Of a DNA stretch of 64,000 nucleotides, positions 14,518 through 53,348 are shown piece by piece; positions within the stretch are counted from its first letter, which is position 1, and every line of letters starts with the position of its first letter. A model generated the notes under the pieces. The model was not told the DNA's origin and did no database searches. It saw only the letters and a list, made by a program, of their open reading frames with translations. The stretch comes from Candidatus Sungiibacteriota bacterium. Its GTDB lineage: Bacteria; Patescibacteriota; Minisyncoccia; Sungbacterales; JACQCQ01. A program made the position numbers and the translations under genes. Where the stretch lies: positions 10,187 through 74,186 of the forward strand of contig JACQCQ010000012.1 of NCBI GenBank assembly GCA_016201505.1, in the 5' to 3' direction.

Positions 14518-14526
14518 AGCAGAAGT

Positions 14527-15481: not shown

Positions 15482-15500
15482 GGAAAACCAAAAATCGGAA

Positions 15501-15737: not shown

Positions 15738-15765
15738 GAGTATTTTGTTCTTTGTATGCTGGTTT

Positions 15766-16122
15766 TTATTCTTTAAACGGAGCAACGGCATCAGGCGAAC
15801 CGCCCTCCCAGCCGCCGAGTAAATGCAGATGCAAATGATCAACGACTTGGCCGCCTTCGCGGCCGACATTAAATAGAAGTTTATAGCCCTTTAAGCGCTC
15901 GGAGGTTGCGATGTCTTTGGCCGTATAAACGAGCTTTGAGATGAGCGAGGCTTCGGCGGATTCAATATGATGGATCGAGTCTATGTGCTTTTTCGGGATA
16001 ATCAGCACATGCACCGGGGCCTTGGGGTGTATATCGCGAAAGGCCAAAACTTCGTTATCGGCGAATACCGTGTCCGATGGTAGCTCACTTTTTGAAATTT
16101 TGCAAAAGATGCAATCGGTCAT
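15766..16122 (-). CDS. HIT family (histidine triad) protein
   Basis: HxHxHxx motif: VDHLHLHLLGG. Confidence 0.85.
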   Translation of the reverse strand: MTDCIFCKISKSELPSDTVFADNEVLAFRDIHPKAPVHVLIIPKKHIDSIHHIESAEASLISKLVYTAKDIATSERLKGYKLLFNVGREGGQVVDHLHLHLLGGWEGGSPDAVAPFKE

Positions 16123-16217
16123 GCGTACATCATCGAATAACTAATCTTTTGCGAATATGCGAATTCGTTTATTCGTTTGAGATTCGAGATTCGCTGATAC
16201 TTATCACTAATAGCGTA

Positions 16218-17534
16218 TCACTTCTTCAATCTCTTTTTAAGTAAATCGATCAACTTATCCTGCGGAATAATTTCCTGAATGCCCGAATCCATTTCACGCA
16301 CCATCACCGTCCCGTCGATGGCTTCTTTTTGGCCGATAATCAGTCCAATCTCGGCCGAAACTTTTTGCGACAGGTGCAGCTGGGATTTAATACTATCTTT
16401 CCCGAGCGATTCATAAACCAGAATACCGGCTTTCCTAAGCTCTTCCATCAAAGATAAACTTTTTCTTTTCGCCAAGTCACCTAACTGAATTAAAATCACT
16501 TTCGGCTTGCTCGTATTAATCACCCGAATGCCCCGCTCGCGGATAACCTGCATGACGCGCTGAATGCCGATGGTCCCGCCGACTGCTGGCGTCGGAACGC
16601 CGCCCAATGTCTCAATTAAATCATCATACCGGCCGCCCGAGCCGATGGCCAAAACTTCTGAATCTTTGCGCGGCTCTTGGGCGTTCGGATCTTCAGCCAC
16701 AAATATTTCAAACAGCGTCCGGGTGTAATAATCAACGCCCTTTACCAAATATGGATTTAAAATATAGGGAATCTTGGACTCATCCAGAAATTCAAGTACC
16801 TGTTTAAAATGCGATTTACAGGGTTGGCATAAGTGATCAATGATGTTGGGTGCCTGTTCCTTTAAAATCGCGCACTTTTCATCGCGGCATTCGAGTACTT
16901 TTAACGGATTGTCTTTTAACTTGACACGACAGGAGCGGCAGATTTTAGCGACTTTGGGCCGATAATAATTGCCGAGCTGCGCTCGGATGATGCCCCGGCA
17001 TTCGCGGCATCCCAGACTGTTGATATGGATGAAAATATCGCGGATGCCGATTTCGGCCAGCAAAACAAACAGCACCTGCATGATGGTCGCATCTCCCACT
17101 GGCGATCCTTCGCCCAGCATTTCAAGCCCCCATTGATGAAATTCACGAAACCAGCCGCGCTCGATGACATCGTGCCGGAACATGGAACCTTGATAGGTCA
17201 ATTTCACCGGCTGCGGCAAATGGGCGAAATCATTTTGAATATACGATCGCGCCGCCGAAATACGCGCATCGGGTCGCAACGATAAGGTTTCGCCGTCTTT
17301 GGTCTTTAAAATGTAGAGCTGTTTTTTGGCGAGATCGCTTCTCTTGCCTAAGCCGGTAAGAAACAGCGCCGGATCTTCGATATGGGGAAACTCGACATGC
17401 TCAAAACCATAGAATTGAGAAATGGCTCTCGCCATCGACATAATACGATCCCACAGCCGCACGTCATCACCGTAAAAATCTTTGGTCCCGCGAAGCGCCA
17501 GAAATTCCTTTTGTTTTTTTGCGGATTGCGCCAT
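16218..17534 (-). CDS. hisS: histidyl-tRNA synthetase
   Basis: Class II aaRS with the HisRS N-terminus (LRGTKDFYGDD, GFEHVEFPHIE, RYDDL...) and a C-terminal anticodon-binding domain. Confidence 0.95.
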   Translation of the reverse strand: MAQSAKKQKEFLALRGTKDFYGDDVRLWDRIMSMARAISQFYGFEHVEFPHIEDPALFLTGLGKRSDLAKKQLYILKTKDGETLSLRPDARISAARSYIQNDFAHLPQPVKLTYQGSMFRHDVIERGWFREFHQWGLEMLGEGSPVGDATIMQVLFVLLAEIGIRDIFIHINSLGCRECRGIIRAQLGNYYRPKVAKICRSCRVKLKDNPLKVLECRDEKCAILKEQAPNIIDHLCQPCKSHFKQVLEFLDESKIPYILNPYLVKGVDYYTRTLFEIFVAEDPNAQEPRKDSEVLAIGSGGRYDDLIETLGGVPTPAVGGTIGIQRVMQVIRERGIRVINTSKPKVILIQLGDLAKRKSLSLMEELRKAGILVYESLGKDSIKSQLHLSQKVSAEIGLIIGQKEAIDGTVMVREMDSGIQEIIPQDKLIDLLKKRLKK

Positions 17535-17537
17535 AAA

Positions 17538-18125
17538 TTAATAAGCAGGCGTATGCACCAGGCCGGCTTCAGAAACAGGCCAGGCGCGAAGCGCCGCGCG
17601 GCCGGTAATTAAATCTCCGGGTAACACGCCCCATTTTCGCGAATCGAGTGAAAATGTTCGATTATCGCCCATCACGAAATATTGATCTGGGCCAAGCGTT
17701 ATTGAAGTCAAATCGCTGATGGTCGAAAGCCCCTTCGGCAAATACGGCTCACCCAACTCTTTGGGCACCCTGGATCCCGGCTCGGTAATAAAAACTTTCC
17801 CGCCGGCAATCGTTACGGTTTCCCCGGGCAGACCAATCACGCGTTTAATAAAATACTGCGACTCATCAAGCGGGAATTTAAACACAACCACATCGCCTCG
17901 CGCGGGCGCGTGCAGATGATAGCTCAACTCATCAATGATCAAGTAATTGCTCTCCTGAAAATTCGGCTCCATCGAGGCACCTTTTACAATAAACGGCTGG
18001 GCAACGAAATAGCGAATGGGAATCACAATCACCACCGCCACAATCAAAATTTTTACAAAATCCCAGGCTTCGCGAACTACACTTTTCCCATTCGAGGCCG
18101 CTTCTTCAGGCTCTTTTTCATCCAT
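17538..18125 (-). CDS. lepB: signal peptidase I
   Basis: GASMEPNF (Ser box), FIKRVIGLPGETV, GDNRTFSLDSR. Confidence 0.85.
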   Translation of the reverse strand: MDEKEPEEAASNGKSVVREAWDFVKILIVAVVIVIPIRYFVAQPFIVKGASMEPNFQESNYLIIDELSYHLHAPARGDVVVFKFPLDESQYFIKRVIGLPGETVTIAGGKVFITEPGSRVPKELGEPYLPKGLSTISDLTSITLGPDQYFVMGDNRTFSLDSRKWGVLPGDLITGRAALRAWPVSEAGLVHTPAY

Positions 18126-18435
18126 ACCCGGTCAGTGAAACCCAGCAGTAGAGCATATGCTCACCACTGGGCAAGCTTCAAATTATGATTAAATAAGTAT
18201 TTACACCCCGGCGTGAGAAGCGAAGCCCAGTATGATACGAAGTATTCGTGCTGGGGTTTCCCTGCCGGGCATAAAATCTAAAGGATAAGCTATAGTAACC
18301 CGAAAATGGCCTCATTTCAAGCCCCAGGGCAGAAATAAGAAGCAGGAATGAGGCATTAAGACGGCGGCACGAAACGCGTATTTTCTATTATTTGTTCTTC
18401 CTTGTTTCTTATACTTTATTCTTTATTCTTAATTC

Positions 18436-19047
18436 ATGATTCTTTTAATTGGCCTAGGGAATCCCGGCAAGGCTTACGAAGGAACACGGCATAATGTGGG
18501 CCGCGAAATTGTTTTGGCCTTCGCTAAAAAGCATGAGGTCAACGCCTTCGCCCCGCATAAAAAAATAAAGGGACTTGTGACTGAATGCAAGATTCAAAAA
18601 GAAAATTACGCTTTGGTTCTGCCGGAAACGTTTATGAACAAATCCGGCCAAGCCGCTAAAGAGGCCAAGCTGGTTTTTAAAACGGAACCCGAAAAAATTT
18701 TTGTGGTGCATGATGATGCCGATATTGAGTTGGGGCGCACCAAACTCCTATTCGGCCGCGATTCGGCGGGACATAAAGGTGTTGAATCCGTGATGCGGGC
18801 GCTCGCCACCAAAGACTTTTGGCGCTTTCGCATCGGTATTGGCGGGGAAAGACCAAGACTGGAACTGGACCTTAGGCGAAGATCAGGTAAAAAAATAAAA
18901 CACGTCGCCGCCGAGTCCCTTGTCTTAAAAAAATTCTCGCCGGCCGAAGAAGCGCTGATGAAAAAAGTCCGCGCTAAAACCATCGGGGCGCTTGGCGATC
19001 TTGCCAATACCCCGCCCGAGCATGTAATGAATCACTATAACAAGTGA
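18436..19047 (+). CDS. pth: peptidyl-tRNA hydrolase
   Basis: MILLIGLGNPGKAYEGTRHNVG..., the Pth N-terminal signature. Confidence 0.9.
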   Translation: MILLIGLGNPGKAYEGTRHNVGREIVLAFAKKHEVNAFAPHKKIKGLVTECKIQKENYALVLPETFMNKSGQAAKEAKLVFKTEPEKIFVVHDDADIELGRTKLLFGRDSAGHKGVESVMRALATKDFWRFRIGIGGERPRLELDLRRRSGKKIKHVAAESLVLKKFSPAEEALMKKVRAKTIGALGDLANTPPEHVMNHYNK

Positions 19048-22285: not shown

Positions 22286-22917
22286 GCCAAATGACTGAAT
22301 CAGAGGTGCTCAAGCTCTACAAGTCGAAAGATGCGGTCTAGTTCTTCAACTACGATGGAGACCAAGCGGCGCCTCACGCGCTTCTCACATCGGGGAAGCA
22401 TTCCGACGGATACATCAACTCGACTCCGGTGCTACAGGACCCGCAGTCGGTCTTAATGCTGGCGGATGCACTTTCGTACAAAGTGAAAGCAGTCGTCGCG
22501 TATGCCGACTGGATCGTTGGCTCGCCGATGGCGGCGATCACGCTCTCCTTCAAGCTCGCCGAGATCATGGAAACATCTCACGGTTTCGCCGAAAAAGACG
22601 GCGAGCGGATGAAGTTCAAGCGCTTCGTCATCCCGCGGCACTCGACAGTTCTGCGTTGTGAAGAGCTCATCACCACCTCGAAGACAACCGAACAGGTGGC
22701 GGAGGCGATCGAGCGCGACAACCCCCATCGCGTGACGATTCTCGGCCAGGTGGCAACGGCCATCTGGAGACCGGAAATGAATGACAAAAGACGCTGGGAG
22801 CCGATTTACCTGGCCAGATGGATCGTCCGAAACTGGGATGCCGCAGACTGCGCGCTCTGCAAACAGGGGTCATCGGCTTTGAAGCCGAAGGAGCATTGGA
22901 GAGAGTTCGCACGATGA
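22282..22917 (+). pseudogene. pyrE: orotate phosphoribosyltransferase-like gene interrupted by an in-frame TAG at 22339-22341
   Basis: ATG at 22282 (ATGA overlap with the pyrF stop) encodes MSQMTESEVLKLYKSKDAV, then TAG. The same frame continues as FFNYDGDQAAPHALLTSGKHSDGYINSTPVLQD...ML ADALSYKV..., which aligns with the OPRTase N-terminus on both sides of the stop. Confidence 0.55.
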
Positions 22918-30054: not shown

Positions 30055-30139
30055 TGGTGCCGGGAGAGGGAGTCGAACCCTCATGAGCTTGCGCTCGCAG
30101 GATTTTGAGTCCTGTGTGTCTGCCAGTTCCACCACCCCG
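30055..30139 (-). tRNA. tRNA-Leu (anticodon CAA), type II with long variable arm
   Basis: rc gives GCCGGGG TGGTGGAACTGGCAGACAC..CAGGACTCAAAATCCTG..(long variable arm)..GGGTTCGACTCCCTC..CCCGGC ACCA. Confidence 0.85.
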
Positions 30140-30321
30140 GCAAAATGATACGGGGCAAATCTGCCAGCCCGCCCCGCACTAATTCCCACAAATTACTTGC
30201 AAACTATATCAAAAGCTAGCTCTAGATGCTACTCGGCATATGAGAATTACATAATCGGAATTTAGTGCGGAGTTCCGCCACCGCGGCATTACAACGCGCA
30301 TACTATTTATACAATCCTCGT

Positions 30322-31365: not shown

Positions 31366-31791
31366 CTATTTTTTCTTAAATGGCGGGATTTGGATCACTT
31401 CGAACTCATGTTGATTTAGATTAAAGACAACTTTATAAAATTCAAAAAACCCATTCTGGCCTAGTAAAGCAGTCGTCTTAAGGTCAGGGATTATAAATGC
31501 TTTTATGTTGAATTCTAAATTATCCTGCGCAAGCTTCAAGATTAAATCGCAACGATATGTTTTTGTCTTAGGGCCTACGATTCCCTGTGTCAAGTCTTCT
31601 TCGCAATCCTCTAATTTTATTCCGAGGGCATCTGCAATCTGACCATTGATATAAGTATCGGTCGCGCCAGAATCTACTAGCGCTTTGATTTTTAGTGATA
31701 GTTGATTTTCGGGATTTTTGAAGACAACATCAATCAGGGGATAATGATTATACTTGTCTTTCCCCATAGCACTGGCATATTGAAACTTCAT
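31366..31791 (-). CDS. retropepsin-like (clan AA) aspartic peptidase
   Basis: VDSGATDTYI (D-S/T-G-A motif) in a 141-aa protein. Local GC is about 36%. Confidence 0.55.
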   Translation of the reverse strand: MKFQYASAMGKDKYNHYPLIDVVFKNPENQLSLKIKALVDSGATDTYINGQIADALGIKLEDCEEDLTQGIVGPKTKTYRCDLILKLAQDNLEFNIKAFIIPDLKTTALLGQNGFFEFYKVVFNLNQHEFEVIQIPPFKKK

Positions 31792-31798
31792 TTATCAA

Positions 31799-31987
31799 TT
31801 ACGACAGAGGCGCTAAACCAACATTTTCTTCAGGCACAAGGAACAAAGAGTAATCTCTACTTTTTTTATCAGCAATTTCTTTTACTTCTTTCACAGAATT
31901 TCCAACAGCAATTACATCATCATCTTCCAGCGCAACCCATTTCTTTTGATGATTCTTAACTAGAGTGGTGATGTCTCCAATATTCAT
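31799..31987 (-). CDS. small DUF-type protein (62 aa) co-oriented 7 nt upstream of the aspartic peptidase
   Basis: KKWVALEDDDVIAVGNSVKEVKEIA pattern. It resembles the small partner protein often found next to retropepsin-like genes in prokaryotes (DUF5678-like; recalled from memory, not verified). Confidence 0.4.
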   Translation of the reverse strand: MNIGDITTLVKNHQKKWVALEDDDVIAVGNSVKEVKEIADKKSRDYSLFLVPEENVGLAPLS

Positions 31988-32258
31988 GGTTTTAGTATAA
32001 CCCGTAACTCTATATTAGTTACATTTCTGCAAATGAATGTCAACATGACAAGTCATTAAGCCTAAAATTTTACTTAGTTCCAGATTCTCTAGTTTCCACT
32101 ATGAAAGCACCCTTCCTGAACTCACCCGCGTAATTTGACTACAGCGTAAATCCAAGCGACCGCGGCGCGGTTTAGATTTTCTTAAACTAATTTAATTATA
32201 TTAATTTTTTTGTTGGGTAGGGCATATCTATTTTACTTTTGTCTTTTCCAAAGACGGT

Positions 32259-35484: not shown

Positions 35485-38211
35485 TTATATCACAAAGTTA
35501 ATCAATCTGCCCGGGATGAAGACCACTTTTTTGGGCGGGGCAATAAAGAATTTGGCGAGCGCATTGTTTTTCGCGAGACTGGCGCTGATTCCGGCCTCGG
35601 AAATATTTCTGGGGAACTCAAGTATCGCGCGGGTTTTGCCGTTTATCTGAATGATAAATTCTGCCGTGTCGCTTGCTTTTTCAACCCTTGCCTCCGGCCA
35701 GCGGCTGTGATGAATCGTTCCCTTTTGTTTCCAGATACTCCAAAGCTCCTCGGTTATAAACGGTGCGAGCGGGCTAAGCAACTTGAGAAACTGCATTCGG
35801 TCTTCTTTGGAGACATTTTCTGGGGATTTCTCAAATCCGCTCATTGCAATCATGAGCGCCGAAATTGCCGTATTGTATTGCAGATTTTGAATGTCGCGAC
35901 TGACTTTTTGAATCGTCTGACTGACCAGTTTTTGGATCTTCTCGTCCGAAACACGCGCCAGTTTTATTTTTGGATCCTGGTAGAAATTCCAAACACGCAT
36001 CAGAAATCGAGTAATGCCGCGAATGCCCGAATCGCGAAAATCGCCGCCTTCGGTAAGGGGTGCCAAAAAAGCCAGATACAGGCGAATCGCGTCTACACCA
36101 TAGGCTTTCATATAACTATCCGGACTTACAATGTTACCCTTTGATTTTGACATCTTGGCGCCGTTTTTCGTGATCAGGCCGTGGGCGCGGAAGGTCGCAA
36201 AAGGTTCCTCAAAGTGGACCAGGCCCCAATCATGCAAAGCCATCGTCATAAATCGCGAATAGAGAAGATGAAGCACCGAGTGCTCGGCGCCGCCGATATA
36301 CATATCAACTGGCAGCCAGCGCCGTGTAATCTCCTGATCCCACGGAATTTCTAATTTCGAAATTTTGGCATGGACCGATGGATATCTCAAGAAATACCAA
36401 GCGGAATCAAAAAATGTATCCGAGACATCGGTTTCGCGCCGCGCCCGGCCTTGGCACTTGGGGCATTTAACTTGATGGAAAGATTTAACCGAGGCCAGCG
36501 GCGAAGCGCCCGTCCCCGTCGGCCGAAATTCCCTTATAAAAGGCAGCTTGACCGGCAGATCTTTATCCGGCACCGGTTGCCACCCACAGTCATTACAAAA
36601 AATCATGGGAATCGGCGGCCCCCAATAGCGCTGGCGCGAAATCAGCCAGTCGCGCAGCCGATACTGAACTTTTTTCTCTCCACCCACGGCCTTCGTGATC
36701 GCCCATTTGGCCTCTTCTGATTTCAGGCCGTTGAATTTCCCAGAGTTTATCAAAACGCCTTCCCCAATATAAGCTGCGTAAACATCACTAAAATCTAATT
36801 GTTCTTTTTTTATCTCAATTTTAATCCCAAACTCGTAGGCTTTTCTAAATTCGTCTTTGTTACCCCAATCAAATCGTTCGTTTTTCCCGTCAGCTGCATG
36901 TAACAAGATTTTCTTAACAGGACCTTCACTATGGATATACCACGGTCCGCTAGTAAAATTTTTTTCTGCAATATCAAAAACTTTTCCTACCTCTTCTGTA
37001 TAGATAAGATTAAGACCATTCCACGTTCCAGTACCTGGCGTAACTTTTGCAAATTTCTGAATCTGTTCGTAGAAATTCTTGTTGAGAGACCGACTAATTA
37101 CAACTATAAAACTCGAGTTTGGCTCTATGACCTGCAAAATTGGCAATTTAAATTTCTTGGCGAATTCAAAGTCGCGTTCATCGTGCGCCGGCACGGCCAT
37201 GATGGCGCCCGTTCCATACGTCGCAAGAACATAATCCGAAATCCAGATCGGAATTGCCTCTTGGTTTGCGGGGTTGACGGCACTCACCCCTTTTACCTCA
37301 ATGCCGGTTTTTTCTTTTCCTGCGGCTGTTCTTTCAATCTCCGATTTTTGTGCTGCAGCTTGAATGTACTTCTCTACTGCCTCCCTATTTGCCATTTGCA
37401 ATGTGCTATTTGCAAGCAACGGATGTTCCGGCGCCAGAACCATATAGGTCGCGCCAAACAAGGTGTCTGGCCGCGTCGTAAACACTTTTATGCTTGATTC
37501 ATGATTCTTGATTCTAAATTCCAGCTCGGCTCCTTCTGATTTTCCGATCCAATTACGCTGTGCAGTTTTGATAGGGTCTGACCAATCGAGTTTCTCAATA
37601 TTGGCAAGCAACCGCTCGGCATAGTCCGTGATTTTGAAAAACCACTGCTCGAGATCTTTTTTGACGACCGGCGTTCCGCAGCGCTCGCACTTGCCGGCAA
37701 TCACCTGTTCATCGGCGAGCACGGTCAGGCACGACGGGCACCAATTGACTTTGGCTTTTTTTCGATAGGCGAGGTTGTGCTTAAACATCTGGATAAACAG
37801 CCATTGGGTGTGTTGGTAGTATGCGGGGTCGTAGGTTTCGAGCCGCTCACGCCAGGCAAACGCGTTTCCAATTTCGGAGAGCTGGCGATAGAAATTTTTT
37901 TCGGTAACCTTGGCTAATTTCATCGGATGCTGATTAATTCTTAAGGCGTAGTTTTCCGAGTGAATGCCGAAGCCATCCAGTCCAATCGGCTCGAAGACGT
38001 CGTGGCCCTGCATACGCTTGAAACGGCCGTAAATATCAACACCAGTGAATGTCCTGACACTCCCGATATGCAGGCCCTCCGCCGAGGGATAGGGAAACAT
38101 CATCAGGTTGTAGTAGGGATTTTTGGCCCGCACCAAATCTGGCTCGTAGGTTTTCTCTTTAAACCACTTTTTACGCCATTTTTTCTCGATTTTGGCCGGG
38201 TTATAGCGCAT
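35485..38211 (-). CDS. leuS: leucyl-tRNA synthetase
   Basis: Class I aaRS with a HIGH-like region, a CP1 editing domain, KMSKS and the LeuRS C-terminus. Confidence 0.95.
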   Translation of the reverse strand: MRYNPAKIEKKWRKKWFKEKTYEPDLVRAKNPYYNLMMFPYPSAEGLHIGSVRTFTGVDIYGRFKRMQGHDVFEPIGLDGFGIHSENYALRINQHPMKLAKVTEKNFYRQLSEIGNAFAWRERLETYDPAYYQHTQWLFIQMFKHNLAYRKKAKVNWCPSCLTVLADEQVIAGKCERCGTPVVKKDLEQWFFKITDYAERLLANIEKLDWSDPIKTAQRNWIGKSEGAELEFRIKNHESSIKVFTTRPDTLFGATYMVLAPEHPLLANSTLQMANREAVEKYIQAAAQKSEIERTAAGKEKTGIEVKGVSAVNPANQEAIPIWISDYVLATYGTGAIMAVPAHDERDFEFAKKFKLPILQVIEPNSSFIVVISRSLNKNFYEQIQKFAKVTPGTGTWNGLNLIYTEEVGKVFDIAEKNFTSGPWYIHSEGPVKKILLHAADGKNERFDWGNKDEFRKAYEFGIKIEIKKEQLDFSDVYAAYIGEGVLINSGKFNGLKSEEAKWAITKAVGGEKKVQYRLRDWLISRQRYWGPPIPMIFCNDCGWQPVPDKDLPVKLPFIREFRPTGTGASPLASVKSFHQVKCPKCQGRARRETDVSDTFFDSAWYFLRYPSVHAKISKLEIPWDQEITRRWLPVDMYIGGAEHSVLHLLYSRFMTMALHDWGLVHFEEPFATFRAHGLITKNGAKMSKSKGNIVSPDSYMKAYGVDAIRLYLAFLAPLTEGGDFRDSGIRGITRFLMRVWNFYQDPKIKLARVSDEKIQKLVSQTIQKVSRDIQNLQYNTAISALMIAMSGFEKSPENVSKEDRMQFLKLLSPLAPFITEELWSIWKQKGTIHHSRWPEARVEKASDTAEFIIQINGKTRAILEFPRNISEAGISASLAKNNALAKFFIAPPKKVVFIPGRLINFVI

Positions 38212-38266
38212 GTATACTTAAGTACTATACAGACGGTTTTGACCCGCTACAAGCTTATAAATAAAT

Positions 38267-38298
38267 TTACGCCGCACAGCAGATGCTGTGCGGCGTAA
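38267..38298 (-). terminator. terminator for the GC-rich hypothetical gene
   Basis: ttacgccgcacagc agat gctgtgcggcgtaa, a 14-bp stem. On the minus strand it is followed by AAUUUAUUUAU. Confidence 0.65.
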
Positions 38299-38323
38299 GT
38301 GAAAAAGAACGAAGGTTGAAGGG

Positions 38324-39058
38324 TTACGAAACTGCTTGACGGGAACGGAGAAGCGAAAGCGAGTCCCCGGGAGGCGTCCAGTAGACCCGCATGCACCCCC
38401 CGCGCCAGTGCACCCGCGGGACGTCACCGCCCGGTCCCCGTGAACCGGAGCAGAGGGTTACGTTATCGATGTCGAGGTGTCCCCCCGTCTTCCAGTGGTA
38501 CCAGAGTTCGAGGATGAGCCGCTCGAGGAGTGTGACGCCGGAGATCTTCTCGCGAGTGAGATCGTTCGCCGACTTCGAATTCAACTCGTTGTCGGCCTCG
38601 ACGCGATCGCGGAGACGGACGGCGTAGGTTTTCGTCGGCTCGCGGTCGTTCCGGCCGCGGGTCGCTTCATCAAGGTCCTCGGCGTGGCACCAGCAGGAAA
38701 ATCTCTTCTCGCACTCGGCGTAGGCGCGATTGGGCGTCAGGCCTGCGGCGACGACGATGAGCCAGTTGAAGCCCTTCGGCTTTTGGGGCAGGACGAGACC
38801 GGCGAGATCGAGCTCAAGCGAGAAGACCTCGCGGTAGAAGCGAGTCCACTCGCTCGTCTCGTCCTCCGACTGCTTCGTGCCCTTCGGCTTTTTGGGCAGG
38901 ACGAGCGCAACGATCTCGCGGAAACGCTCCTCGTCGTGGGCGAGGATCGCCCAGAATTCCTCTCCGGCGCCGACTTTGCGGCCGGTGATGACGGCTTCGT
39001 GAATCAGCCCGTGGTCTTTTCCGAACTCGATCGCGGGACGCACCATGGATTCGTCCAT
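38324..39058 (-). CDS. hypothetical protein, compositionally foreign (about 63% GC), with an internal LVLP(K/Q)KPKG tandem repeat
   Basis: Excellent SD (aaggagggtgtgtc ATG), its own terminator, and GC far above its neighbours. Motifs AHDEER, CWCHAEDLDE and HWKTGGHLDIDN are present. I could not assign a family. Confidence 0.6.
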   Translation of the reverse strand: MDESMVRPAIEFGKDHGLIHEAVITGRKVGAGEEFWAILAHDEERFREIVALVLPKKPKGTKQSEDETSEWTRFYREVFSLELDLAGLVLPQKPKGFNWLIVVAAGLTPNRAYAECEKRFSCWCHAEDLDEATRGRNDREPTKTYAVRLRDRVEADNELNSKSANDLTREKISGVTLLERLILELWYHWKTGGHLDIDNVTLCSGSRGPGGDVPRVHWRGGCMRVYWTPPGDSLSLLRSRQAVS

Positions 39059-39141
39059 GACACACCCTCCTTCTTGTAAATTAGCTCTATTTCAGGCAAA
39101 CAAAGTGTAGCATCAATAGTCTTTACTGTCAAATCCAGTTG

Positions 39142-39969
39142 CTAAATTTGAAAGAGTCTTCGGCAGTTTTGAGTTGTTGCTTCGGCCACTGCCTCAAGCG
39201 AAACTCCTTGCCACTCGGCCAGTTTTTTGGCTGTGGCTTCGATATAGAAAGGTTCATTCCGTTTGCCGCGATACGGGACGGGTGCGACATACGGCGCGTC
39301 GGTTTCTAAAAGTATCTTTTGAAGCGGAACCTGCGAGACGATGTCATAATAGCTTTTGGCAAATGTAATTACGCCGCCAAAGCCGATATAAAAGCCCAAA
39401 TCCATGAGAGCGCTGGCCTCGGCGGCCGTGCCGCTGAAAAAATGGACCACGCCCATAGGTCTAGAATTAGGAATTAAGAAGTAGGAATTAAGGATTTCGA
39501 TGAGGTCGCCGAACGCTTCCCGACAATGGATGATCAATGGTTTCCCGACTGCTTTTGCAACTTCTATTTGAGACTTAAAAATTCTTTTTTGTTCTGCCTT
39601 AATTCGTAATTCATCACTCTGGATTCTATAATAATCGAGGCCGCACTCGCCTATACTGACGACCTTCGCATGCGAGCCTAATTCGAGAAACGTAGCCGCA
39701 TCAAATACTTCGGCGCTCGCCTGCTCTTTCTCCCATTCGTCGTGATAACTTTTAACCGCGTGCGTCGGATGAAATCCGACTGAAGCATACACACCTTCAG
39801 CATATTTTTCGGCAAGTAAAATTGCCTCCCTCGAAGTTGATGCTTGTGTTCCGATATTTATCATCCAAATGCCGGCCTCGAGAGATCGCTGAATAACAGC
39901 CTCACGATCATCTTTGAACACCGGAAACTGGACGTGCGTATGCGAATCAATCAGTTTGGGGTTCGACAT
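39142..39969 (-). CDS. tatD: TatD family metal-dependent DNase/hydrolase
   Basis: IDSHTHVQF start, with TatD His/Asp/Glu metal ligands throughout. Confidence 0.85.
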   Translation of the reverse strand: MSNPKLIDSHTHVQFPVFKDDREAVIQRSLEAGIWMINIGTQASTSREAILLAEKYAEGVYASVGFHPTHAVKSYHDEWEKEQASAEVFDAATFLELGSHAKVVSIGECGLDYYRIQSDELRIKAEQKRIFKSQIEVAKAVGKPLIIHCREAFGDLIEILNSYFLIPNSRPMGVVHFFSGTAAEASALMDLGFYIGFGGVITFAKSYYDIVSQVPLQKILLETDAPYVAPVPYRGKRNEPFYIEATAKKLAEWQGVSLEAVAEATTQNCRRLFQI

Positions 39970-40009
39970 AGGAGAAAAACTGTGTTAGACAACAAATACG
40001 GAGGAGCCC

Positions 40010-40204
40010 ATGCCCGACATAGCTGTTTTCTACCTGAAGGGTGAGAACGGTGAGTACAAGTTGACGCTCGCGCATCATGGATGCTACACCATTTTCCGGA
40101 TCAAGCACCCGCGCGAAGTAATGGGAACGCCAAAGATCTTTTTGAATTCAGGCAACATCCCCAACTGCCCCATTCACAATGGTGAGCGCACCATGGCGAT
40201 CTAA
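40010..40204 (+). CDS. hypothetical small protein (64 aa)
   Basis: SD (ggaggagcc) before the ATG. Its end overlaps the 3' end of the convergent metG gene. No family assigned. Confidence 0.3.
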   Translation: MPDIAVFYLKGENGEYKLTLAHHGCYTIFRIKHPREVMGTPKIFLNSGNIPNCPIHNGERTMAI

Positions 40205-41640
40205 CCGAGGCGCGGAAATAAATTCGCGCCTCGTTCTATTTTTAACTCGGCCGCACCCCAGGGGTTGGTGCCTTTGGTAAGCCCCAGTGAGCCAAACACC
40301 GTATCCGCCGTTTTCGGCATAAAGGGACCGGCGCAGCCGATGAGAGCGACCGTCATACCGAGACAATTTCTCAAGACTTTTTTCTTTTCACCACCTTCAA
40401 GTGTCCAGGGCTTTTTCTCGTTTAAATACTGATCAAGATGCTTTACCATCTCCTGAATAATTCCCGTGGCCCTGAAAAAGTCGAGCTCTGACATATACGC
40501 GCGATATTTCGTATGCAGTCCGCTAAATACTTTTTCAAATTCCGGATCGGCACCCAAAATGATCCCGTTGACCCCCACCGCCAAGGTGGTAATGCGAGAA
40601 ACCGCATTGCCGATGCCATTTGCCAGATCGGCATTATATTTTTCTGCCATGCGCGACCAGTCAAAATCGCCATCAACGCCAAAGGGAAATGAGGAAAGCA
40701 AGAGATAGCGGGAAGCCTCAACGCCGAATGTTTCGATAAGTTGATGCGGCGTAATGACATTGCCCAAGGTTTTTGACATTTTTTGGCCGCCGATCGTAAA
40801 AAAACCGTGGGCGAATATTTTTTTCGGCAAGTCTTCATCAACGGCAAGCAGCATAGCGGGCCAGACGATGGCATGAAACCAAAGTATGTCTTTCCCGATG
40901 AGATGCAAATCCGCCGGCCAGGCGCCGGTTGGTTGGCCGTAGGTGTAGTAGTTTATTAAAGCCTCAATCCAGACGTAACAGGTGTGCGACGGATCAAAGG
41001 GCAATGGGATGCCCCAGGAAACGCTCTTCCGAGAAATCGAAATGTCCTCGAGCCCTTGGCGCAATTTGCCCACGACTTCATTTTTCCGCTCGAGAGGCCG
41101 AATTTCAAGCTCATTCGATTCAATGACGTTAATTAATTTTTTTTCGAATTGAGAGAGCTTGAAAAAATAATTTTCCTCTTTATAGGGCAGCGCGGGTTTT
41201 GCGTGATCAGGACAGATCCCGTTGACCAGCTCTTCGGGCGACATAAATTTCTCATGCCCTAGGCAATAGAGCCCCTCATAGATGCCTTTCGTAATATAGC
41301 CGCGATCAAATAATTTCTGCAGAAAATCTTTCGCGGTACTTTCATGGTCTGGATCGGTCGTTCTGATAAATCGATCGTACGCAATTTCAAGCTTCTCCCA
41401 GGCATCTTTAAATCCGACTACAATCTCATCAACGTATTCTTTGGGATTTTTGTTGTGAATTGAGGCCGCCTCGGCGATTTTGGCGCCATGTTCGTCAGTA
41501 CCGACCAGCAGAAGGGCCGTCTCGCCAGACTGTCTTTTAAACCGAACCAAAACGTCCGCGGCCACGGTCGTATAAGCATGCCCGATGTGCGGCAGATCAT
41601 TTACGTAATAAATCGGCGTCGTTACAAAAAACGGCTTCAT
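40201..41640 (-). CDS. metG: methionyl-tRNA synthetase (short form)
   Basis: PIYYVNDLPHIGHAYTTV (HIGH) and KMSKTLGN (KMSKS). Confidence 0.95.
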   Translation of the reverse strand: MKPFFVTTPIYYVNDLPHIGHAYTTVAADVLVRFKRQSGETALLLVGTDEHGAKIAEAASIHNKNPKEYVDEIVVGFKDAWEKLEIAYDRFIRTTDPDHESTAKDFLQKLFDRGYITKGIYEGLYCLGHEKFMSPEELVNGICPDHAKPALPYKEENYFFKLSQFEKKLINVIESNELEIRPLERKNEVVGKLRQGLEDISISRKSVSWGIPLPFDPSHTCYVWIEALINYYTYGQPTGAWPADLHLIGKDILWFHAIVWPAMLLAVDEDLPKKIFAHGFFTIGGQKMSKTLGNVITPHQLIETFGVEASRYLLLSSFPFGVDGDFDWSRMAEKYNADLANGIGNAVSRITTLAVGVNGIILGADPEFEKVFSGLHTKYRAYMSELDFFRATGIIQEMVKHLDQYLNEKKPWTLEGGEKKKVLRNCLGMTVALIGCAGPFMPKTADTVFGSLGLTKGTNPWGAAELKIERGANLFPRLG

Positions 41641-41691
41641 ACGGTGTCCCTACTATAGAGAATGTTGGATAAAGAGCAACTGAAATTTAGT

Positions 41692-42726
41692 TTAGCCGCG
41701 ACGCCGCTTCTTGTGGTCCATGTCGTTTAAAAGCTCAACCACAACGGATGCCATGGGAACGGCCAGCAGCAAGCCCACGATGCCGGCAAGTTCGGCGCCA
41801 ACGAGCAGCGATATTACGACCACGATCGGCGGAATGCCGATGGCGGTTCTCATCACCAGCGGAACGATGACGTGCGATTCTAATTGCTGGACGATCACAA
41901 AGAGAATGACCACCATCAGCGCTAAAAACGGACTCTGCAAAAATGCGACCATAACGGCGGGAATGGCCGCCAACACCGGACCAACAATCGGGACTAACTC
42001 CAAAATCGCGGCGATAAAGGCAAAAACCAGAGCGTACTTTACGTGCAGCAGCGTGAGTCCGAGAAATATGAAAGCGCCGATCAACAGTCCCAGTAAAATT
42101 TGCGCCCGCAGCCACTGGCCCATCTTCCGTTGCGACCGGCTCCATAAATCAACGGCGTATTCTTCGTGCTCTAAAGGAATAATGATGCGAATAAAATCTT
42201 CAATCCCTCTTTCACGAGCCGTCAAATAAAATGAAACGACGATAATAATGACACCCGAGAATACGCCGCCGAAAAAATTAGAGGTAAAGGACAAAACCCC
42301 GCCGGTGAATCCTGAGATATAGCGGGCGGGCTGGGAGAGCGCATCGCGCAAATTGGCGGAGAGAAAATCGGCAAAAGGGACATTACCGATATTTTCAATC
42401 TCGCGCAGGACTTGGCGCTCAAATACCGGATAGGACAAGGTGAATCCCTGAAAATCCTGCGAGATTAAAGGTATGATCAGATAGACGGCCAGCGACAAAA
42501 CCCCGATAACCGAAAGAAAAATCAGAATCGTGCCTAAAATTCGCGGGACTTTTCTTTTTTGCAACCAGCGAATCGCCGGCTCCATGGACGAGGCTACAAC
42601 GACGGCAAATAAAATTACGGCGATCGTCTGGCGCAAAACATAGAAGAGCAGAAAGCCAAGCAAGACCGCAAATACCCGGAAAATGGTCCCGGTTGAGATA
42701 TCGATCATCTGTCGTGTTTGGTTCAT
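41692..42726 (-). CDS. AI-2E family transporter (PerM/YhhT-like permease)
   Basis: Eight-TM topology with the conserved AI-2E central loop. Confidence 0.75.
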   Translation of the reverse strand: MNQTRQMIDISTGTIFRVFAVLLGFLLFYVLRQTIAVILFAVVVASSMEPAIRWLQKRKVPRILGTILIFLSVIGVLSLAVYLIIPLISQDFQGFTLSYPVFERQVLREIENIGNVPFADFLSANLRDALSQPARYISGFTGGVLSFTSNFFGGVFSGVIIIVVSFYLTARERGIEDFIRIIIPLEHEEYAVDLWSRSQRKMGQWLRAQILLGLLIGAFIFLGLTLLHVKYALVFAFIAAILELVPIVGPVLAAIPAVMVAFLQSPFLALMVVILFVIVQQLESHVIVPLVMRTAIGIPPIVVVISLLVGAELAGIVGLLLAVPMASVVVELLNDMDHKKRRRG

Positions 42727-43991
42727 TCTAGTTTTAGGAGCCGTCTGAATTTCGCTTCATCCTTATGGGGCCCAATAAGCGCCAGATTCAGTCGTTCCGG
42801 CCGAAATAGACGGCGCGCCACGCGTTGGATGTCGCGAGCGCTGACTTTCTCAATCTTAGCAAAAACTTCATCAATCGTCAGGGGTTTATGCGTTAAAACT
42901 TCTTCCACGCCGATGAAACTCGCGACCGCATTCGAAGCCTCCAAACCAATCAAAGAAATTCCTCTGACATAATCCTTCGTGCGGGCGAGCTCCCGCGCAC
43001 TGACCAAAGACCGCGTGATCCGGCCGTATTCCTGCATGACAGCAGTGATGGCTTTCTCAACATTTCCGTGCGCCACGCCCGCATAGGTTGTCAAATGGCC
43101 GCGATTCGTATAGGCATCGTTGGAGGTGTGAACGGTATAAGCCAGTCCCAGTCGATCTCGCACCCTATCCCAGATCCTAGAGGACCAGCTACCCCCGAGT
43201 ATGGCCGCTAAAAGCTCGGCGGCATAGCGTTCCCGATCTGAAATCGTTAGTCCTTTAAAACCGACCAGGATATGCGATTGGTCAGTTTCTTTAGCATGAA
43301 GCTTTATACCGAGGGCTTTGGGGGATTCCTTAAATAGTCCTTTAGATCTCGGCCGTGAGGCGCGAACACGGCCGAACAACTTTTTAATTTTAGCGATGAC
43401 TTTAGCTTCCGTAAAATTACCTGCTACAATCACCGCCGTGTTTTCGGCAGTGTACTGATTTTTAAAATAGCCGCGAAACTGCTCCGGTGTGAACGTGCGG
43501 ATATTTTTTTCTGTGCCGATGATCTCCCAACCGGCGTTCTGATCGCCGTATAACAGCCTCTCATAGACATCCCAGACATACCGATCCGGCGTGTCGAGAT
43601 ATTTATGCATCTCTTCGATGATCACCTGACGTTCACGATTAATTTCTTTAGGATCTAACAGCGAGTTGGTGTACACATCGGCCAAAAGATCAAGCGCGGG
43701 ATCCAGATACACATGACCGGCTTTAATGAAATACCCAGTGTATTCGTGACTGGTAAACGCGTTTGAAATGCTCCCCATTGAATCTAATTCATGCTTGATG
43801 GTTTGCGGCGTGGGGCGCCGTTTCGTGCCTTTAAAAAACATGTGTTCCAAAAAGTGAGAAATGCCGCTTTCTTTCCCCGTCTCGTTGTCCGAACCCGTTT
43901 CGCACATAACCAAAACGGTCACCGTATTCGTGCCCTGCATGGGGGCGGTGAGAATCCTAAGCTTGTTGGGCAAAATGGTTTTCTTAAACAT
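42723..43991 (-). CDS. M16 family zinc peptidase (insulinase-like)
   Basis: Inverted zinc motif HFLEHMFFKGT (HxxEH). Confidence 0.85.
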   Translation of the reverse strand: MFKKTILPNKLRILTAPMQGTNTVTVLVMCETGSDNETGKESGISHFLEHMFFKGTKRRPTPQTIKHELDSMGSISNAFTSHEYTGYFIKAGHVYLDPALDLLADVYTNSLLDPKEINRERQVIIEEMHKYLDTPDRYVWDVYERLLYGDQNAGWEIIGTEKNIRTFTPEQFRGYFKNQYTAENTAVIVAGNFTEAKVIAKIKKLFGRVRASRPRSKGLFKESPKALGIKLHAKETDQSHILVGFKGLTISDRERYAAELLAAILGGSWSSRIWDRVRDRLGLAYTVHTSNDAYTNRGHLTTYAGVAHGNVEKAITAVMQEYGRITRSLVSARELARTKDYVRGISLIGLEASNAVASFIGVEEVLTHKPLTIDEVFAKIEKVSARDIQRVARRLFRPERLNLALIGPHKDEAKFRRLLKLE

Positions 43992-51731: not shown

Positions 51732-53348
51732 CTACATTTCTTCGGGAGCGGAAATCCCCAAAAGATCCAATGATTTTTTTAAAACAATTTGAGTGGCCCT
51801 CGCTAATTGAAGCCGCGATTTTTTAATATCGGCTGCTGCATCCAAGATGCGTTCTGTCTCATAGAACACATGAAAGTTATGCGCGAGCTCGTAAGCATAG
51901 CGGATGAGTCTCGAAACGCGATAATCCGCGGCAATGTCACGCAGCACATCCGGAAAATCAATTAATTTCCAAATTAAACGATCCTCCGATTCTGAAGCCA
52001 GGAGCGAGACATCGAAATCAGATTTTTCATACGGCTCTTTTATGAAAATCGAACAAAGGCGTGCGTGCGCATACTGAATATAGAAGACCGGATTTTCTTT
52101 GGATCTTTTTTTAGCCAGATCCAAATCAAAATCAATATGCGTCTCGTGATTTTTTTCTAAAAAGAAATACCGCGCCTGATCGAGACCGACTTCATCAATC
52201 AATTCATCAATGGTGACGTATACTCCTGTGCGTTTGGACATCCGCCGCTCAACGCCATTTTCCATCAAACGAACAAGCTGCATTACGATCACTTCAGATT
52301 TCGCCATCCCGATAATTTTCGCTACTGCCTGAATCCTGGAAACGTAACCATGATGATCGGCACCCAAAATATTGATTTTGTGATTAAAACCTCGTTTCTT
52401 GGTTTCTAAATAGTGAGCAGCATCAATAAAAAAGTACGTCGGGAGTCGGTCAGAGGTGACTAGAACTCGATCTTTATCATCTCCATATTTTTTCGTTTTT
52501 AACCATCTGGCACCATCCCTGTCAAAAATAAGATCAGGGGAAATAGATTTCGCAAGCTGTTCAAATTCGATAGTTAAAGGCGGCCGGCTTTGGCGAATAT
52601 CTCGTTGTTCGGATGTCCACCTATCAAAATTGATTTTCATTTTTTTCTCAATTACCGGTCGAATGAGATTTTTAACAAAATCATTTGCAACATATATCCC
52701 GAGAAGCTGAGGATCTTTTAAATAAAGATCCCAGTTCAATGTTTGTTTAGAGTCAAGCCATTCTTTCAAATAATCCCCATGATAATATTTCTCGTCATCT
52801 AGCACCTTGCCCGCTATAGCTAAAATTGAAAGTCCAAGTGTTGTGATCTGGTTCCCGGAATCATTGATATAATATTCACGTTCAACCTCAAAACCCTGCG
52901 AGGCCAGAACGCGAGAAAGCACGTCGCCCAAGAATCCGCCGCGGCCGTTGGCAAGTGTTAAAGGACCGGTTGGATTGGCTGAAATAAACTCGACTTGGAT
53001 TTTTTCGTTGAGGCGACTCTGATTCCCGTAGCGCTCTTTTCCATCTAAGATTCGTGTAAATTCTTTTTTTACTTCAGACTCGGAAATTTGGAAATTCAGG
53101 AATCCCGGAGGAGAAAACGTAATCGTGGCAATGGCCGGATCGATAATTTTTCGCATTAACATCTCGGCCACATCTTGAGGTTGCTTTTTTTCAAGGCCCG
53201 CCAAAACGAGAGGTAAATTGGTGGCATAGTCACCGAGTTCGGCCCTTGGCGGGTGTTCAACCGAAAATGAAACCCCCCCTGGAATCTCCACATTTTTTCG
53301 CAAGATTTCTATAATTCTTTCTCTCATGCCTATGATGTATCTTATCAT
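51732..53348 (-). CDS. argS: arginyl-tRNA synthetase
   Basis: Class I aaRS with N-terminal Add-1, a HIGH region (ANPTGPLTLANGRG), MSKR and a DALR anticodon-binding domain. Confidence 0.9.
   Translation of the reverse strand: MIRYIIGMRERIIEILRKNVEIPGGVSFSVEHPPRAELGDYATNLPLVLAGLEKKQPQDVAEMLMRKIIDPAIATITFSPPGFLNFQISESEVKKEFTRILDGKERYGNQSRLNEKIQVEFISANPTGPLTLANGRGGFLGDVLSRVLASQGFEVEREYYINDSGNQITTLGLSILAIAGKVLDDEKYYHGDYLKEWLDSKQTLNWDLYLKDPQLLGIYVANDFVKNLIRPVIEKKMKINFDRWTSEQRDIRQSRPPLTIEFEQLAKSISPDLIFDRDGARWLKTKKYGDDKDRVLVTSDRLPTYFFIDAAHYLETKKRGFNHKINILGADHHGYVSRIQAVAKIIGMAKSEVIVMQLVRLMENGVERRMSKRTGVYVTIDELIDEVGLDQARYFFLEKNHETHIDFDLDLAKKRSKENPVFYIQYAHARLCSIFIKEPYEKSDFDVSLLASESEDRLIWKLIDFPDVLRDIAADYRVSRLIRYAYELAHNFHVFYETERILDAAADIKKSRLQLARATQIVLKKSLDLLGISAPEEM

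Follow-up and report, generated by a model that had tools for sequence, protein, structure and literature searches.

The open reading frame at positions 38324-39058 on the reverse strand of the window, i.e., of the whole 64-kb stretch of DNA that was analysed, very probably encodes a variable protein, i.e., the target of a diversity-generating retroelement (DGR), here one of the type specific to Patescibacteria. The gene belongs to a protein family whose homologues are associated with DGRs, its variable repeat (VR) carries an adenine footprint, and it possesses the cis elements of a DGR target; the rest of the cassette is absent from the window. In a DGR, the transcript of a template repeat (TR) is copied into cDNA by a reverse transcriptase (RT) that inserts random nucleotides opposite the adenines, and the mutated cDNA replaces the VR. 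The features of the locus, all on the reverse strand and given in the direction of reading, are the following.

Positions 39104-39132, reverse strand: sigma-70-like promoter match (TTGACA, 17-nt spacer, TG-TACACT; 10 of 12 consensus positions) in the intergenic region between tatD and the target gene
Positions 39065-39072, reverse strand: Shine-Dalgarno sequence AAGGAGGG, 6 nt before the ATG, as read from the sequence
Positions 38324-39058, reverse strand: target-gene CDS, 244 aa, ATG start, probable DGR variable protein
Residues 1-65 of the protein: N-terminal module, helical and poorly conserved
Residues ~66-244 of the protein: conserved domain with a predicted C-type-lectin fold
Positions 38879-38905, reverse strand: internal direct repeat, copy 1, encoding LVLPKKPKG in the low-confidence linker of the N-terminal module
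Positions 38771-38797, reverse strand: internal direct repeat, copy 2, encoding LVLPQKPKG at the start of the conserved domain
Positions 38327-38444, reverse strand: VR, the last 39 codons (S206-S244)
Positions 38327-38351, reverse strand: IMH-like 3' end of the VR, TCTCCGTTCCCGTCAAGCAGTTTCG, 25 nt, differing little from the VR ends in L081 and L083
Positions 38299-38323, reverse strand: pyrimidine-rich spacer CCCTTCAACCTTCGTTCTTTTTCAC between the stop codon and the hairpin
Positions 38267-38298, reverse strand: GC-rich hairpin with a 14-bp stem (9 GC pairs) and a 4-nt loop, ATCT, followed by T-rich ATTTATTTAT

The family to which the protein belongs is large, with 336 word-index matches and 1,907 clusters at 50% identity, although the 90% identity cluster of the window's protein has a single member. 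The members are all unnamed proteins without a Pfam assignment, and the entries that come with names derive from Patescibacteria MAGs. The evidence for the role of the family comes from the neighbourhoods of 80 homologous loci from many Patescibacteria lineages, in which the neighbouring genes were clustered. A target-bAvd-RT arrangement was found in about 30 of the 80 loci, the neighbours being identified by Pfam as RVT_1 (E 1e-24) and bAvd (E 7e-16), and about 33 contain TR/VR pairs of 116-133 nt with mismatches almost exclusively at the adenines of the TR (25/25 in L002, 28/28 in L020, 24/24 in L048, 22/22 in L064 and 23/23 in L067). The closest cassette-bearing relatives of the window's gene behave in the same way: L081 (P0002), which is 60% identical to the window's protein and has the target-bAvd-RT order, shows 22 of 23 mismatches at adenines, and L083 (P0004), with 62% identity over the conserved domain, 21 of 22. 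In complete cassettes, the TR of ~120 nt is located 300-450 nt downstream of the target, beside the bAvd and RT genes. The suggestion in the preliminary description to look for a cognate partner elsewhere was the right lead. In these cassettes, the cDNA would rewrite the last ~40 codons of the gene, so that about ten AAY codons on the ligand-binding surface of the C-type-lectin domain are diversified while the scaffold stays constant, and the GC-rich, terminator-like hairpin ~27 nt past the stop codon would mark the 3' side of the target.

The VR of the window's gene shows the corresponding footprint, albeit relative to the TRs of relatives, as all TRs with which it was compared are heterologous. 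Mismatches with the TR of L081 occur at 25 of 32 adenine sites and at 14 of 84 other sites (Fisher p 1e-9), those with the TR of L083 at 21 of 29 adenine sites and 11 of 83 other sites (p 7e-9), and those with the TR of L089 at 20 of 27 adenine sites and 10 of 69 other sites. Overall, the VR thus differs at 72-78% of the adenine sites vs. 13-17% of the others. A known active VR compared with a heterologous TR gave similar values (67% vs. 12%), whereas two TRs compared with each other differed at only 1 of 30 adenine sites. When the VR is aligned with the TRs of L081 and L083, the codons that are AAY in the TR, and hence predicted to be diversified, are 208, 212, 215, 217, 219, 224, 226, 232, 234, and 236. 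Because no cognate TR, Avd or RT was found, the action of a DGR on this copy is inferred from its relatives, whose TRs suggest that it underwent adenine mutagenesis in the past. At its 3' end, the VR has an extra A that distinguishes VRs from TRs in this subfamily (CAAG.AG in VRs vs. C-AGAAG in TRs), the TR-type 3' end of the subfamily being ...CCGTC-AGAAGTTTCG. This segment of the VR encodes the conserved C-terminus LRSRQAVS; hence, its conservation could also result from selection at the protein level.

Downstream of the VR, the spacer is followed by the hairpin, which begins 26 nt after the stop codon. At the position of the spacer, related tracts of the CCTTGTACCTTGT type are found across the family. 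The hairpin had been described as a dedicated terminator with a 14-bp stem, and by its appearance it does look like an intrinsic terminator; with its T-rich tail, it may even be only that. However, it also occupies the position of the retrohoming hairpin/cruciform in DGR targets, in which a GC-rich hairpin 4-34 bp downstream of the VR is required (PMC3240598). In a census for stems of at least 8 bp that begin 10-50 nt past the stop codon, such a stem was found in 49 of 73 family loci vs. 47 of 300 control genes. The 49 family stems start at a median distance of 27 nt, have a median length of 12 bp and are followed by a T-run in 42 cases, while the stem sequences vary between loci. Thus, the window's gene retains all target-side elements, i.e., the scaffold, a VR with the adenine footprint and a VR-type end, the spacer, the hairpin, a promoter-like site, which is predicted by consensus match, and a Shine-Dalgarno sequence. 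The latter is strong, as the preliminary description had stated, but its distance to the start codon is 6 rather than 7 nt.

As noted earlier, the protein does not match any annotated family: nothing significant was found in Pfam, NCBIfam, PHROGs, PADLOC or the sequences in the PDB, with zero matches in PADLOC and PHROGs and only sub-threshold noise in Pfam and NCBIfam. Also a profile of the family did not match any PDB sequence, and neither the window's protein nor 40 family members matched Pfam FGE-sulfatase (PF03781) or another named C-type-lectin family. A structure model, in which pLDDT drops below 50 at residues 58-61, nevertheless predicts a C-type-lectin fold that carries the VR and resembles the DGR proteins TvpA, Mtd, and TaqVP, although a Foldseek search of the PDB with the model, a check that had been recommended, yielded no significant match. 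The protein lacks a signal peptide and a transmembrane segment and, therefore, probably either stays inside the cell or leaves it by a non-classical export pathway. As a variable protein with this fold, it would be expected to function as a ligand-binding scaffold. This differs from the earlier proposal of a toxin, a defence protein or a modification enzyme; no defence or toxin model in PADLOC, PHROGs, Pfam or NCBIfam was matched.

That proposal was part of a broader reading, according to which the locus is a recently imported, stand-alone foreign gene for such a toxin, defence protein or enzyme, recognizable by its foreign GC content. The compositional observation itself holds. The GC content of the gene is 63.3% (GC1 64%, GC2 45%, GC3 80%) vs. 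49.0% for the whole window, and it shifts abruptly at both ends of the gene. Among the 44 other window ORFs of at least 150 aa, the mean GC is 49.9% (sd 3.0) and the mean GC3 54.4% (sd 5.3), which puts this ORF 4.4 and 4.9 sd above the mean of these ORFs, respectively, as the most extreme gene of the window. The bin 38501-39000, with a GC fraction of 0.634, is the only 500-bp bin above 0.56, and within the gene the GC content peaks in the VR (0.73 at 38351-38450). The gene is also autonomous, as claimed: it is a transcription unit of its own with no partner gene nearby in the window. It is located between tatD and leuS, its neighbours encoding TatD (Pfam E 2e-75) and a 908-aa LeuS-like class I aminoacyl-tRNA synthetase, and leuS comes directly after the hairpin. 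Furthermore, DGRs as a class do move horizontally (PMC5758913).

However, the GC excess is a trait of the family. In 86% of the 80 loci, the homologue is more than 5 GC points above its own flanks, with a mean difference of +11.7. The excess begins at the start codon, stops at the stop codon, resides at synonymous sites (GC3 +18, GC2 -1) and is equal in cassette-linked and orphan copies; moreover, the GC content of the family genes correlates with that of their hosts (r 0.45-0.57). Being family-wide and CDS-bounded, the excess says nothing about transfer into this genome. In addition, where a cassette is present, its Avd and RT genes have a higher AT content than the host, neither a tRNA, an integrase or another mobility gene nor flanking direct repeats were found around the gene, there is no PADLOC, PHROG, Pfam or NCBIfam match, and the fold and the genomic context point to a binding protein rather than an enzyme. 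A recently acquired genomic island was rejected because the GC excess is not host-specific and the hallmarks of integration are absent. The preliminary description had regarded orthologues at the same locus in relatives as evidence against import, and these were found in part: homologues are located immediately upstream of leuS in three other lineages (L002, L005, and L014), and in L061, the closest available relative (LeuS 64% identical), the homologue is found at the other end of the M16-permease-MetS-TatD-LeuS block, indicating that the position of the gene is not fixed. Although the latter observation would fit import, we consider recent acquisition of a foreign toxin, defence or modification gene very unlikely.

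The abrupt change in GC content at both gene ends might also suggest that a fragment from an organism of higher GC content was chimerically joined during assembly or binning. Yet, the gene and its TatD/LeuS flanks are identical at the DNA level in two Logan assemblies that were made independently from different runs (L090 and L091), which argues against an assembly artefact, and the same CDS-bounded step is seen in dozens of unrelated assemblies. The probability of such an artefact is, therefore, negligible. Another previously reported feature, the internal direct repeat, was confirmed; its two copies of 27 nt, with one mismatch, are in frame and 108 nt apart. As a feature of the family or of DGRs it was rejected, since it is present in only 1 of 70 family genes and is thus specific to the window's gene.

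With the gene interpreted as a DGR target, adenine mutagenesis accounts for no more than the GC peak in the VR. At four-fold sites in the VRs of the family, only A is depleted relative to the host (x0.31), whereas T is hardly affected (x0.95), and the extreme GC content of the VR is a by-product of adenine replacement. The CDS outside the VR has a family-wide excess of 9 points, which is mostly synonymous and mainly due to C. Spill-over of adenine mutagenesis was rejected as its source, because outside the VR the depletion at four-fold sites affects T (x0.76) as much as A (x0.74). Amino-acid composition was rejected as well in view of the difference between GC2 (-1) and GC3 (+18), and the notion that the whole cassette is a GC-rich mobile element is contradicted by the Avd and RT genes, which are 6-7 points AT-richer than their flanks. 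Translational selection for C-ending codons is unsupported, as neither the gene for ribosomal protein S7 nor the window's aminoacyl-tRNA synthetase genes have an unusual composition at four-fold sites. It is conceivable, though we consider it rather improbable, that the enrichment of the scaffold reflects some hitherto undescribed process or constraint that acts on a gene because it is a DGR target. Candidate causes would be selection acting on the DNA or mRNA of the target, either to keep it competent for retrohoming or to protect the scaffold, GC-biased repair accompanying repeated integration of cDNA, or a pool of target genes whose movement between CPR lineages is uncoupled from that of the RT module.

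Neither an RT, an Avd nor a TR is present in the 64 kb; the gene is, therefore, a remote target or, if its cassette was lost, an orphan. A tblastn search of the window with 60 RT and Avd sequences of the family gave no match, and a blastn search (word size 7) with the VR and 29 family TRs did not reveal a TR-like copy. Walking along the contig added ~4 kb past one end of the window and none past the other, without an RT or a TR. Among the best 120 of more than 7,900 matches to the RT of the closest cassette, no protein with an HY220 locus tag was found that could represent the RT of this MAG. A metagenome scan for the TR-type 3' end did not recover a cognate TR but only one unrelated cassette, L088, and the TR of L089 (P0253), the nearest RT relative, belongs to the same subfamily but is cognate to neither the window's VR nor that of the orphan L084.

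These results weigh against an active remote target, i.e., a gene that is still being diversified in trans by an Avd-TR-RT module located elsewhere, be it in the remaining ~25 kb of this contig or on a different one. Besides, DGRs of CPR bacteria tend to have a single, adjacent target, distances of more than 100 kb were seen only in another lineage (PMC5758913), and the protein, the only member of its 90% cluster, and its VR are identical in both samples in which they were found, thus providing no sign of ongoing diversification, although these data are thin. On the other hand, the target-side cis elements are all intact, and the divergence of the VR from the TRs of relatives at non-adenine sites (13-17%) was counted as no greater than that between TRs (12%), indicating that the VR has not visibly decayed. 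Remote targets and the action of Avd-TR-RT in trans are documented (PMC5758913), surveys of metagenomes are blind to such targets (PMC8144416), and several genomes contain two to four copies of the gene with no RT within 10 kb (JAQTMG: L039, L041, L054, and L079). Continued diversification in trans is, therefore, a serious contender that we consider somewhat short of an even chance. We slightly favour an orphan that has lost its cassette and may now function as a binding protein of fixed specificity; this assessment of the present activity is indirect, as it is inferred from the observations above.

With this identification, a family of hypothetical proteins that comprises ~1,900 clusters (50% identity) and lacks a Pfam or NCBIfam model receives a function class, namely that of DGR variable proteins of C-type-lectin fold. 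It further implies that a GC spike over a single gene is an unreliable sign of horizontal transfer in these genomes. Such a spike can instead be used to flag DGR targets, even those that lie apart from their RT and by design escape contig-based surveys. Given that orphan or remote copies lie beside housekeeping genes, one may ask which share of the variable proteins of CPR bacteria is diversified in trans and which is frozen, a question that bears on the tuning of binding specificity in minimal, host-dependent bacteria. The synonymous GC excess of the scaffold constitutes a small but concrete lead for DGR biology.

The window's gene adds a member to an already known class of DGR targets. A DGR clade restricted to Patescibacteria was reportedly first surveyed by Paul et al. 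in 2017. In the CPR-restricted clade 2 of Roux et al. (2021), the targets lack transmembrane segments and other recognizable domains (PMC8144416). Like these targets, the window's protein is encoded by a CPR cell rather than a phage, is small, without a transmembrane segment, a signal peptide or a recognized domain, and carries its VR at the extreme C-terminus. The cassettes of the clade contain bAvd and a DGR RT, and the window's protein is homologous (up to 60% identity) to proteins encoded in such cassettes, whereas the window's copy has no adjacent Avd, TR or RT. With TvpA (2y3c), Mtd (1yu0), and TaqVP (5vf4), it shares the fold in the model but only 10-13% sequence identity; homology to them is not detectable at the sequence level, and Foldseek recovered none of them. 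The window's protein, with its short N-terminal module of helices and without an export signal, differs from both Mtd, a trimer of the phage tail fibre, and the lipoprotein TvpA. The FGE-like fold, as in SUMF2 (1y4j), PvdO, the C-terminal domains of EgtB/OvoA, and PorK, is close, but none of the 40 family members matched FGE-sulfatase.

The gene also resembles known remote DGR targets, e.g., those in Treponema denticola, in having a VR and 3' cis elements away from an RT, and the action of Avd-TR-RT in trans was demonstrated experimentally (PMC5758913). Known remote targets have a TR that matches the VR at all non-adenine positions, whereas for the window's gene none was found in the DNA searched. 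Finally, the hairpins of the family correspond to the DGR hairpin/cruciform described by Guo et al. (2011; PMC3240598) in that the stem is GC-rich and the structure rather than the sequence is conserved, and, at 25-33 nt past the end of the VR, they are within the range of 4-34 bp reported there. They differ in that their stems are longer (median 12 bp, and 14 bp in the window) than the 7-10 bp in that study and their loops, such as ATCT in the window, do not follow the GRNA consensus of phage DGRs (PMC3240598). Since a T-run follows in 42 of the 49 loci, the family hairpin is probably also a genuine terminator, and the terminator-like character of the hairpin in DGR targets was already remarked upon by Guo et al. 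(2011; PMC3240598).

The GC-rich gene at 38324-39058 on the minus strand, which encodes a 244-aa product, is very probably a Patescibacteria-type variable-protein gene of a diversity-generating retroelement (DGR), located apart from its retroelement; such target genes form an already known class. The toxin, defence or modification function guessed at in the preliminary description is not supported. The ORF of outlying GC, the SD sequence, the hairpin and the internal direct repeat that it reported are all present. Elements of the locus:

39132-39104, minus strand: match to a sigma-70-like promoter
39065-39072, minus strand: SD sequence AAGGAGGG, 6 nt upstream of the target ATG
38771-38797 and 38879-38905, minus strand: 27-nt direct repeat with one mismatch, spacing 108 nt, in frame
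38299-38323, minus strand: pyrimidine-rich spacer between the target stop codon and the hairpin
38267-38298, minus strand: hairpin with a 14-bp stem and a T-rich tail
flanking the target gene, both on its strand: TatD gene and LeuS-like synthetase gene

The gene has a GC content of 63.3% (GC1 64%, GC2 45%, GC3 80%) against a window average of 49.0%. No other gene in the window deviates as strongly in composition: it lies 4.4 sd (GC) and 4.9 sd (GC3) from the mean of the 44 other ORFs that reach 150 aa. The leuS start lies 112 nt downstream of its stop codon. Two independent assemblies give identical DNA for the locus, which is, therefore, not a chimera. The 200-aa ORF over the gene on the plus strand (38477-39079) was rightly considered an antisense shadow: similar antisense ORFs occur in 11 other loci, and such a frame is expected from the high GC3 and gives no sign of a second gene.

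Elsewhere in the window, the arginyl-tRNA synthetase gene (51732-53348, minus strand) is the AT-rich outlier (GC 42%, GC3 41%, against means of 50% and 54%). The lowest-GC 500-bp bins, 501-1000 and 31501-32000 (0.37 each), cover, respectively, a PDDEXK_3-family ORF (633-1031) beside the ribosomal protein S7 gene and a segment without a long ORF ~1.4 kb from tRNA-Leu (30055-30141). The second-highest GC3 (0.73; GC 0.58) belongs to a 153-aa ORF without a Pfam match (22456-22917, plus strand), which could be either a spurious frame or a further unusual small gene.

The target protein has no match in Pfam, NCBIfam, PHROGs, PADLOC or PDB sequences. An identical "hypothetical protein" is encoded in a Candidatus Sungbacteria MAG. 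Far from being an orphan, the target protein belongs to a large family, with 336 homologues by word-indexed search and, by exhaustive search, 1,907 clusters at 50% identity. All these proteins are unnamed, and the named source organisms are Patescibacteria MAGs; many loci carry the title 'uncultured Gammaproteobacteria' or 'Saccharibacteria' despite a Parcubacteria-type, CPR-looking gene content. In the family alignment, the N-terminal ~65 residues vary and a C-terminal domain of ~175 residues is well conserved. The AlphaFold model of the target protein is confident, with a pLDDT of 86.7 overall and >90 for residues 70-244. A TM-like segment is absent in 68 of 70 members, including the target protein. 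Links to characterised DGR variable-protein structures were not recovered by Foldseek or profile-sequence searches, and the relationship is, therefore, distant.

The homologous protein P0004 is 62% identical to the target protein over the C-terminal domain (residues 60-244), with an unrelated N-terminus (1-59), and the N-terminal type of the target protein is also found in P0002, P0003, P0005-P0007 and P0009. N-terminal modules are shuffled within the family. The 27-nt repeat, found in the target gene only (1/70 family genes), has one copy in the N-terminal module's disordered linker and the other at the first strand of the conserved domain; given such shuffling, it may, speculatively, be a scar of module exchange.

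Genomic loci of 80 homologues were fetched and all neighbouring ORFs clustered. In ~30 of them, two further genes come after the homologue, encoding a ~122-aa protein, bAvd (PF22296, E 7e-16), and then a ~330-aa one, the reverse transcriptase (RT; PF00078, E 1e-24). In ~33 loci, the homologue's final ~120 nt recur 300-450 nt downstream, and nearly all mismatches are at adenines of the downstream copy (25/25, 28/28, 24/24, 22/22 and 23/23, with similar values in others). Mismatches confined to adenines of the template repeat (TR) are the defining signature of a DGR TR and its variable repeat (VR), and these loci are diversity-generating retroelements. The closest relative of the target protein, P0002 (60% identity), is encoded within a full target-bAvd-RT cassette with 22/23 mismatches at adenines, and the P0004 gene adjoins a TR with 21/22.

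Several genomes contain between two and four paralogues, most of which have no RT closer than 10 kb (L039, L041, L054 and L079 in one MAG, JAQTMG; L055/L062; L003/L006), and tandem pairs are found in L009, L015, L032 and L071. The copies in L071 are 3.8 kb apart and 94% identical over 297 nt covering the VR and the downstream region, with no adenine specificity in their differences, a pattern that points to shared targeting or gene conversion.

The VR of the window's gene, its last 118 nt (38327-38444), was compared by alignment with TRs from three relatives, none of them cognate. It differs at 25/32, 21/29 and 20/27 of the TR-adenine positions and at just 14/84, 11/83 and 10/69 of the other positions (Fisher p 1e-9 and 7e-9 for the first and second TR). 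A like pattern is seen when a VR known to be active is set against a heterologous TR (20/30 adenine sites, 10/84 other sites), and between the TRs of two relatives the adenines are kept (1/30 differ). The TRs carry AAY at ten codons, corresponding to residues 208, 212, 215, 217, 219, 224, 226, 232, 234 and 236 of the target protein. The 3' 25 nt of the VR are nearly identical to the VR ends at the P0002 and P0004 loci (L081 and L083), including the additional A that marks VRs, as opposed to TRs, in this subfamily. The window's gene carries all target-side features of a DGR.

These features extend beyond the stop codon. The ~25-nt spacer contains reiterated CTTG/CCTT units, e.g., CCTTGTACCTTGTTC, and occupies the same position in most family loci. 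This pyrimidine tract is present in active and orphan loci (those without an adjacent cassette) alike, beyond the TR/VR homology, and may act in target recognition or serve to bind a protein or RNA. Stems of 8 bp or more whose start falls 10-50 nt past the stop codon are found in 49/73 family loci versus 47/300 control genes; the stems start at a median of 27 nt, have a median length of 12 bp and unrelated sequences, and are followed by a T-run in 42/49 cases. DGR retrohoming needs a hairpin/cruciform 4-34 bp downstream of the VR, of which the structure and not the sequence of the stem matters (PMC3240598). The family hairpin corresponds to this element, its structure being kept and its stem sequence not; its loops depart from the GRNA consensus of phage DGRs. 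It probably also terminates transcription.

The retroelement itself is missing from this region: no RT, Avd or TR was found anywhere in the 64-kb window or in ~4 kb past one window end. No RT of the MAG's own was recognised among the best 120 of >7,900 matches to the RT of the closest cassette, and no cognate TR was found in a metagenome scan or on L089, the contig carrying the closest RT relative. Slightly favoured is the loss of the cassette, leaving the window's gene as a frozen orphan. Both states are found at equivalent positions: target-Avd-RT-leuS in L002, and target-leuS in L005, L014 and the window. Similarly, a cassette precedes another class I synthetase in L066 and is absent there in L027 and L033. 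Alternatively, the gene might still be diversified in trans by a DGR elsewhere in the genome, which we regard as a tentative but serious possibility. Its cis elements are intact, at non-adenine sites its VR is no more diverged from the relatives' TRs than these are from each other, and both remote targets and action in trans have been described (PMC5758913). However, CPR DGRs are reported to tend to one adjacent target (PMC5758913), no cassette part lies within ~68 kb, and the VR is identical in both samples holding it, its 90% cluster having one member. The gene has moved relative to a conserved housekeeping block. In the closest available relative, L061 (64% identity in LeuS), the M16 peptidase-permease-MetS-TatD-LeuS block of the window is found as well (9776-18526, versus 35485-43991 in the window), with the target upstream of the M16 gene rather than between tatD and leuS; its position is, therefore, not fixed.

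The GC excess, from which a recent acquisition had been proposed, is a property of the family and uninformative on transfer into this genome. Over the 80 loci, the GC of the homologues is on average 11.7 points higher than that of their flanks (maximum +26), and the difference is >5 points in 86% of cases. In a metaprofile, the excess starts at the start codon, stops at the stop codon and is equal in cassette-linked (0.092) and orphan copies (0.095). Only L059 (MICJ01000066, a 'Syntrophobacterales' MAG) has a homologue markedly GC-poorer than its flanks (0.51 vs. 0.59); this non-CPR bin could reflect a mis-binned contig or transfer out of Patescibacteria. Within cassettes, the deviation of the target gene from the flanks is +7 in the N-terminal part, +9 in the core and +22 in the VR. 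At four-fold sites inside the VR, A alone is depleted (x0.31); thus, adenine replacement accounts for the VR peak, including the 73% GC of 38351-38450. Outside the VR, A (x0.74) and T (x0.76) are depleted equally and C is enriched (x1.34), which contradicts spill-over adenine mutagenesis as the source of the excess in this scaffold. Amino-acid composition is contradicted by its location at third positions (GC1 +5, GC2 -1, GC3 +18) and a GC-rich mobile cassette by the AT-richer Avd (-7) and RT (-6), the spacer being at 0 and the TR at +9, whilst translational selection is not supported by four-fold-site composition. None of these explanations fits. Family-wide, the scaffold is ~9 GC points above host genes, and the Avd and RT genes of these cassettes exceed the host in AT by 6-7 points. 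Outside the VR, the regression on host GC has a slope of 0.48 and crosses equality at ~57%.

These results annotate a large unnamed protein family and place the unexplained synonymous GC excess of its scaffold on record, and show that a GC spike bounded by the CDS is a flag for DGR targets in such genomes. In the canonical layout of the Bordetella phage DGR, avd, TR and brt are co-directional. In contrast, bAvd is reversed in cassettes such as L081 (1515-3045), L001, L002 and L007, where the target, TR and RT are on the plus strand and bAvd on the opposite one; independent gene calls for L081 agree with this order. In the lack of recognisable domains, the target family resembles the targets of a CPR-restricted DGR clade (PMC8144416).
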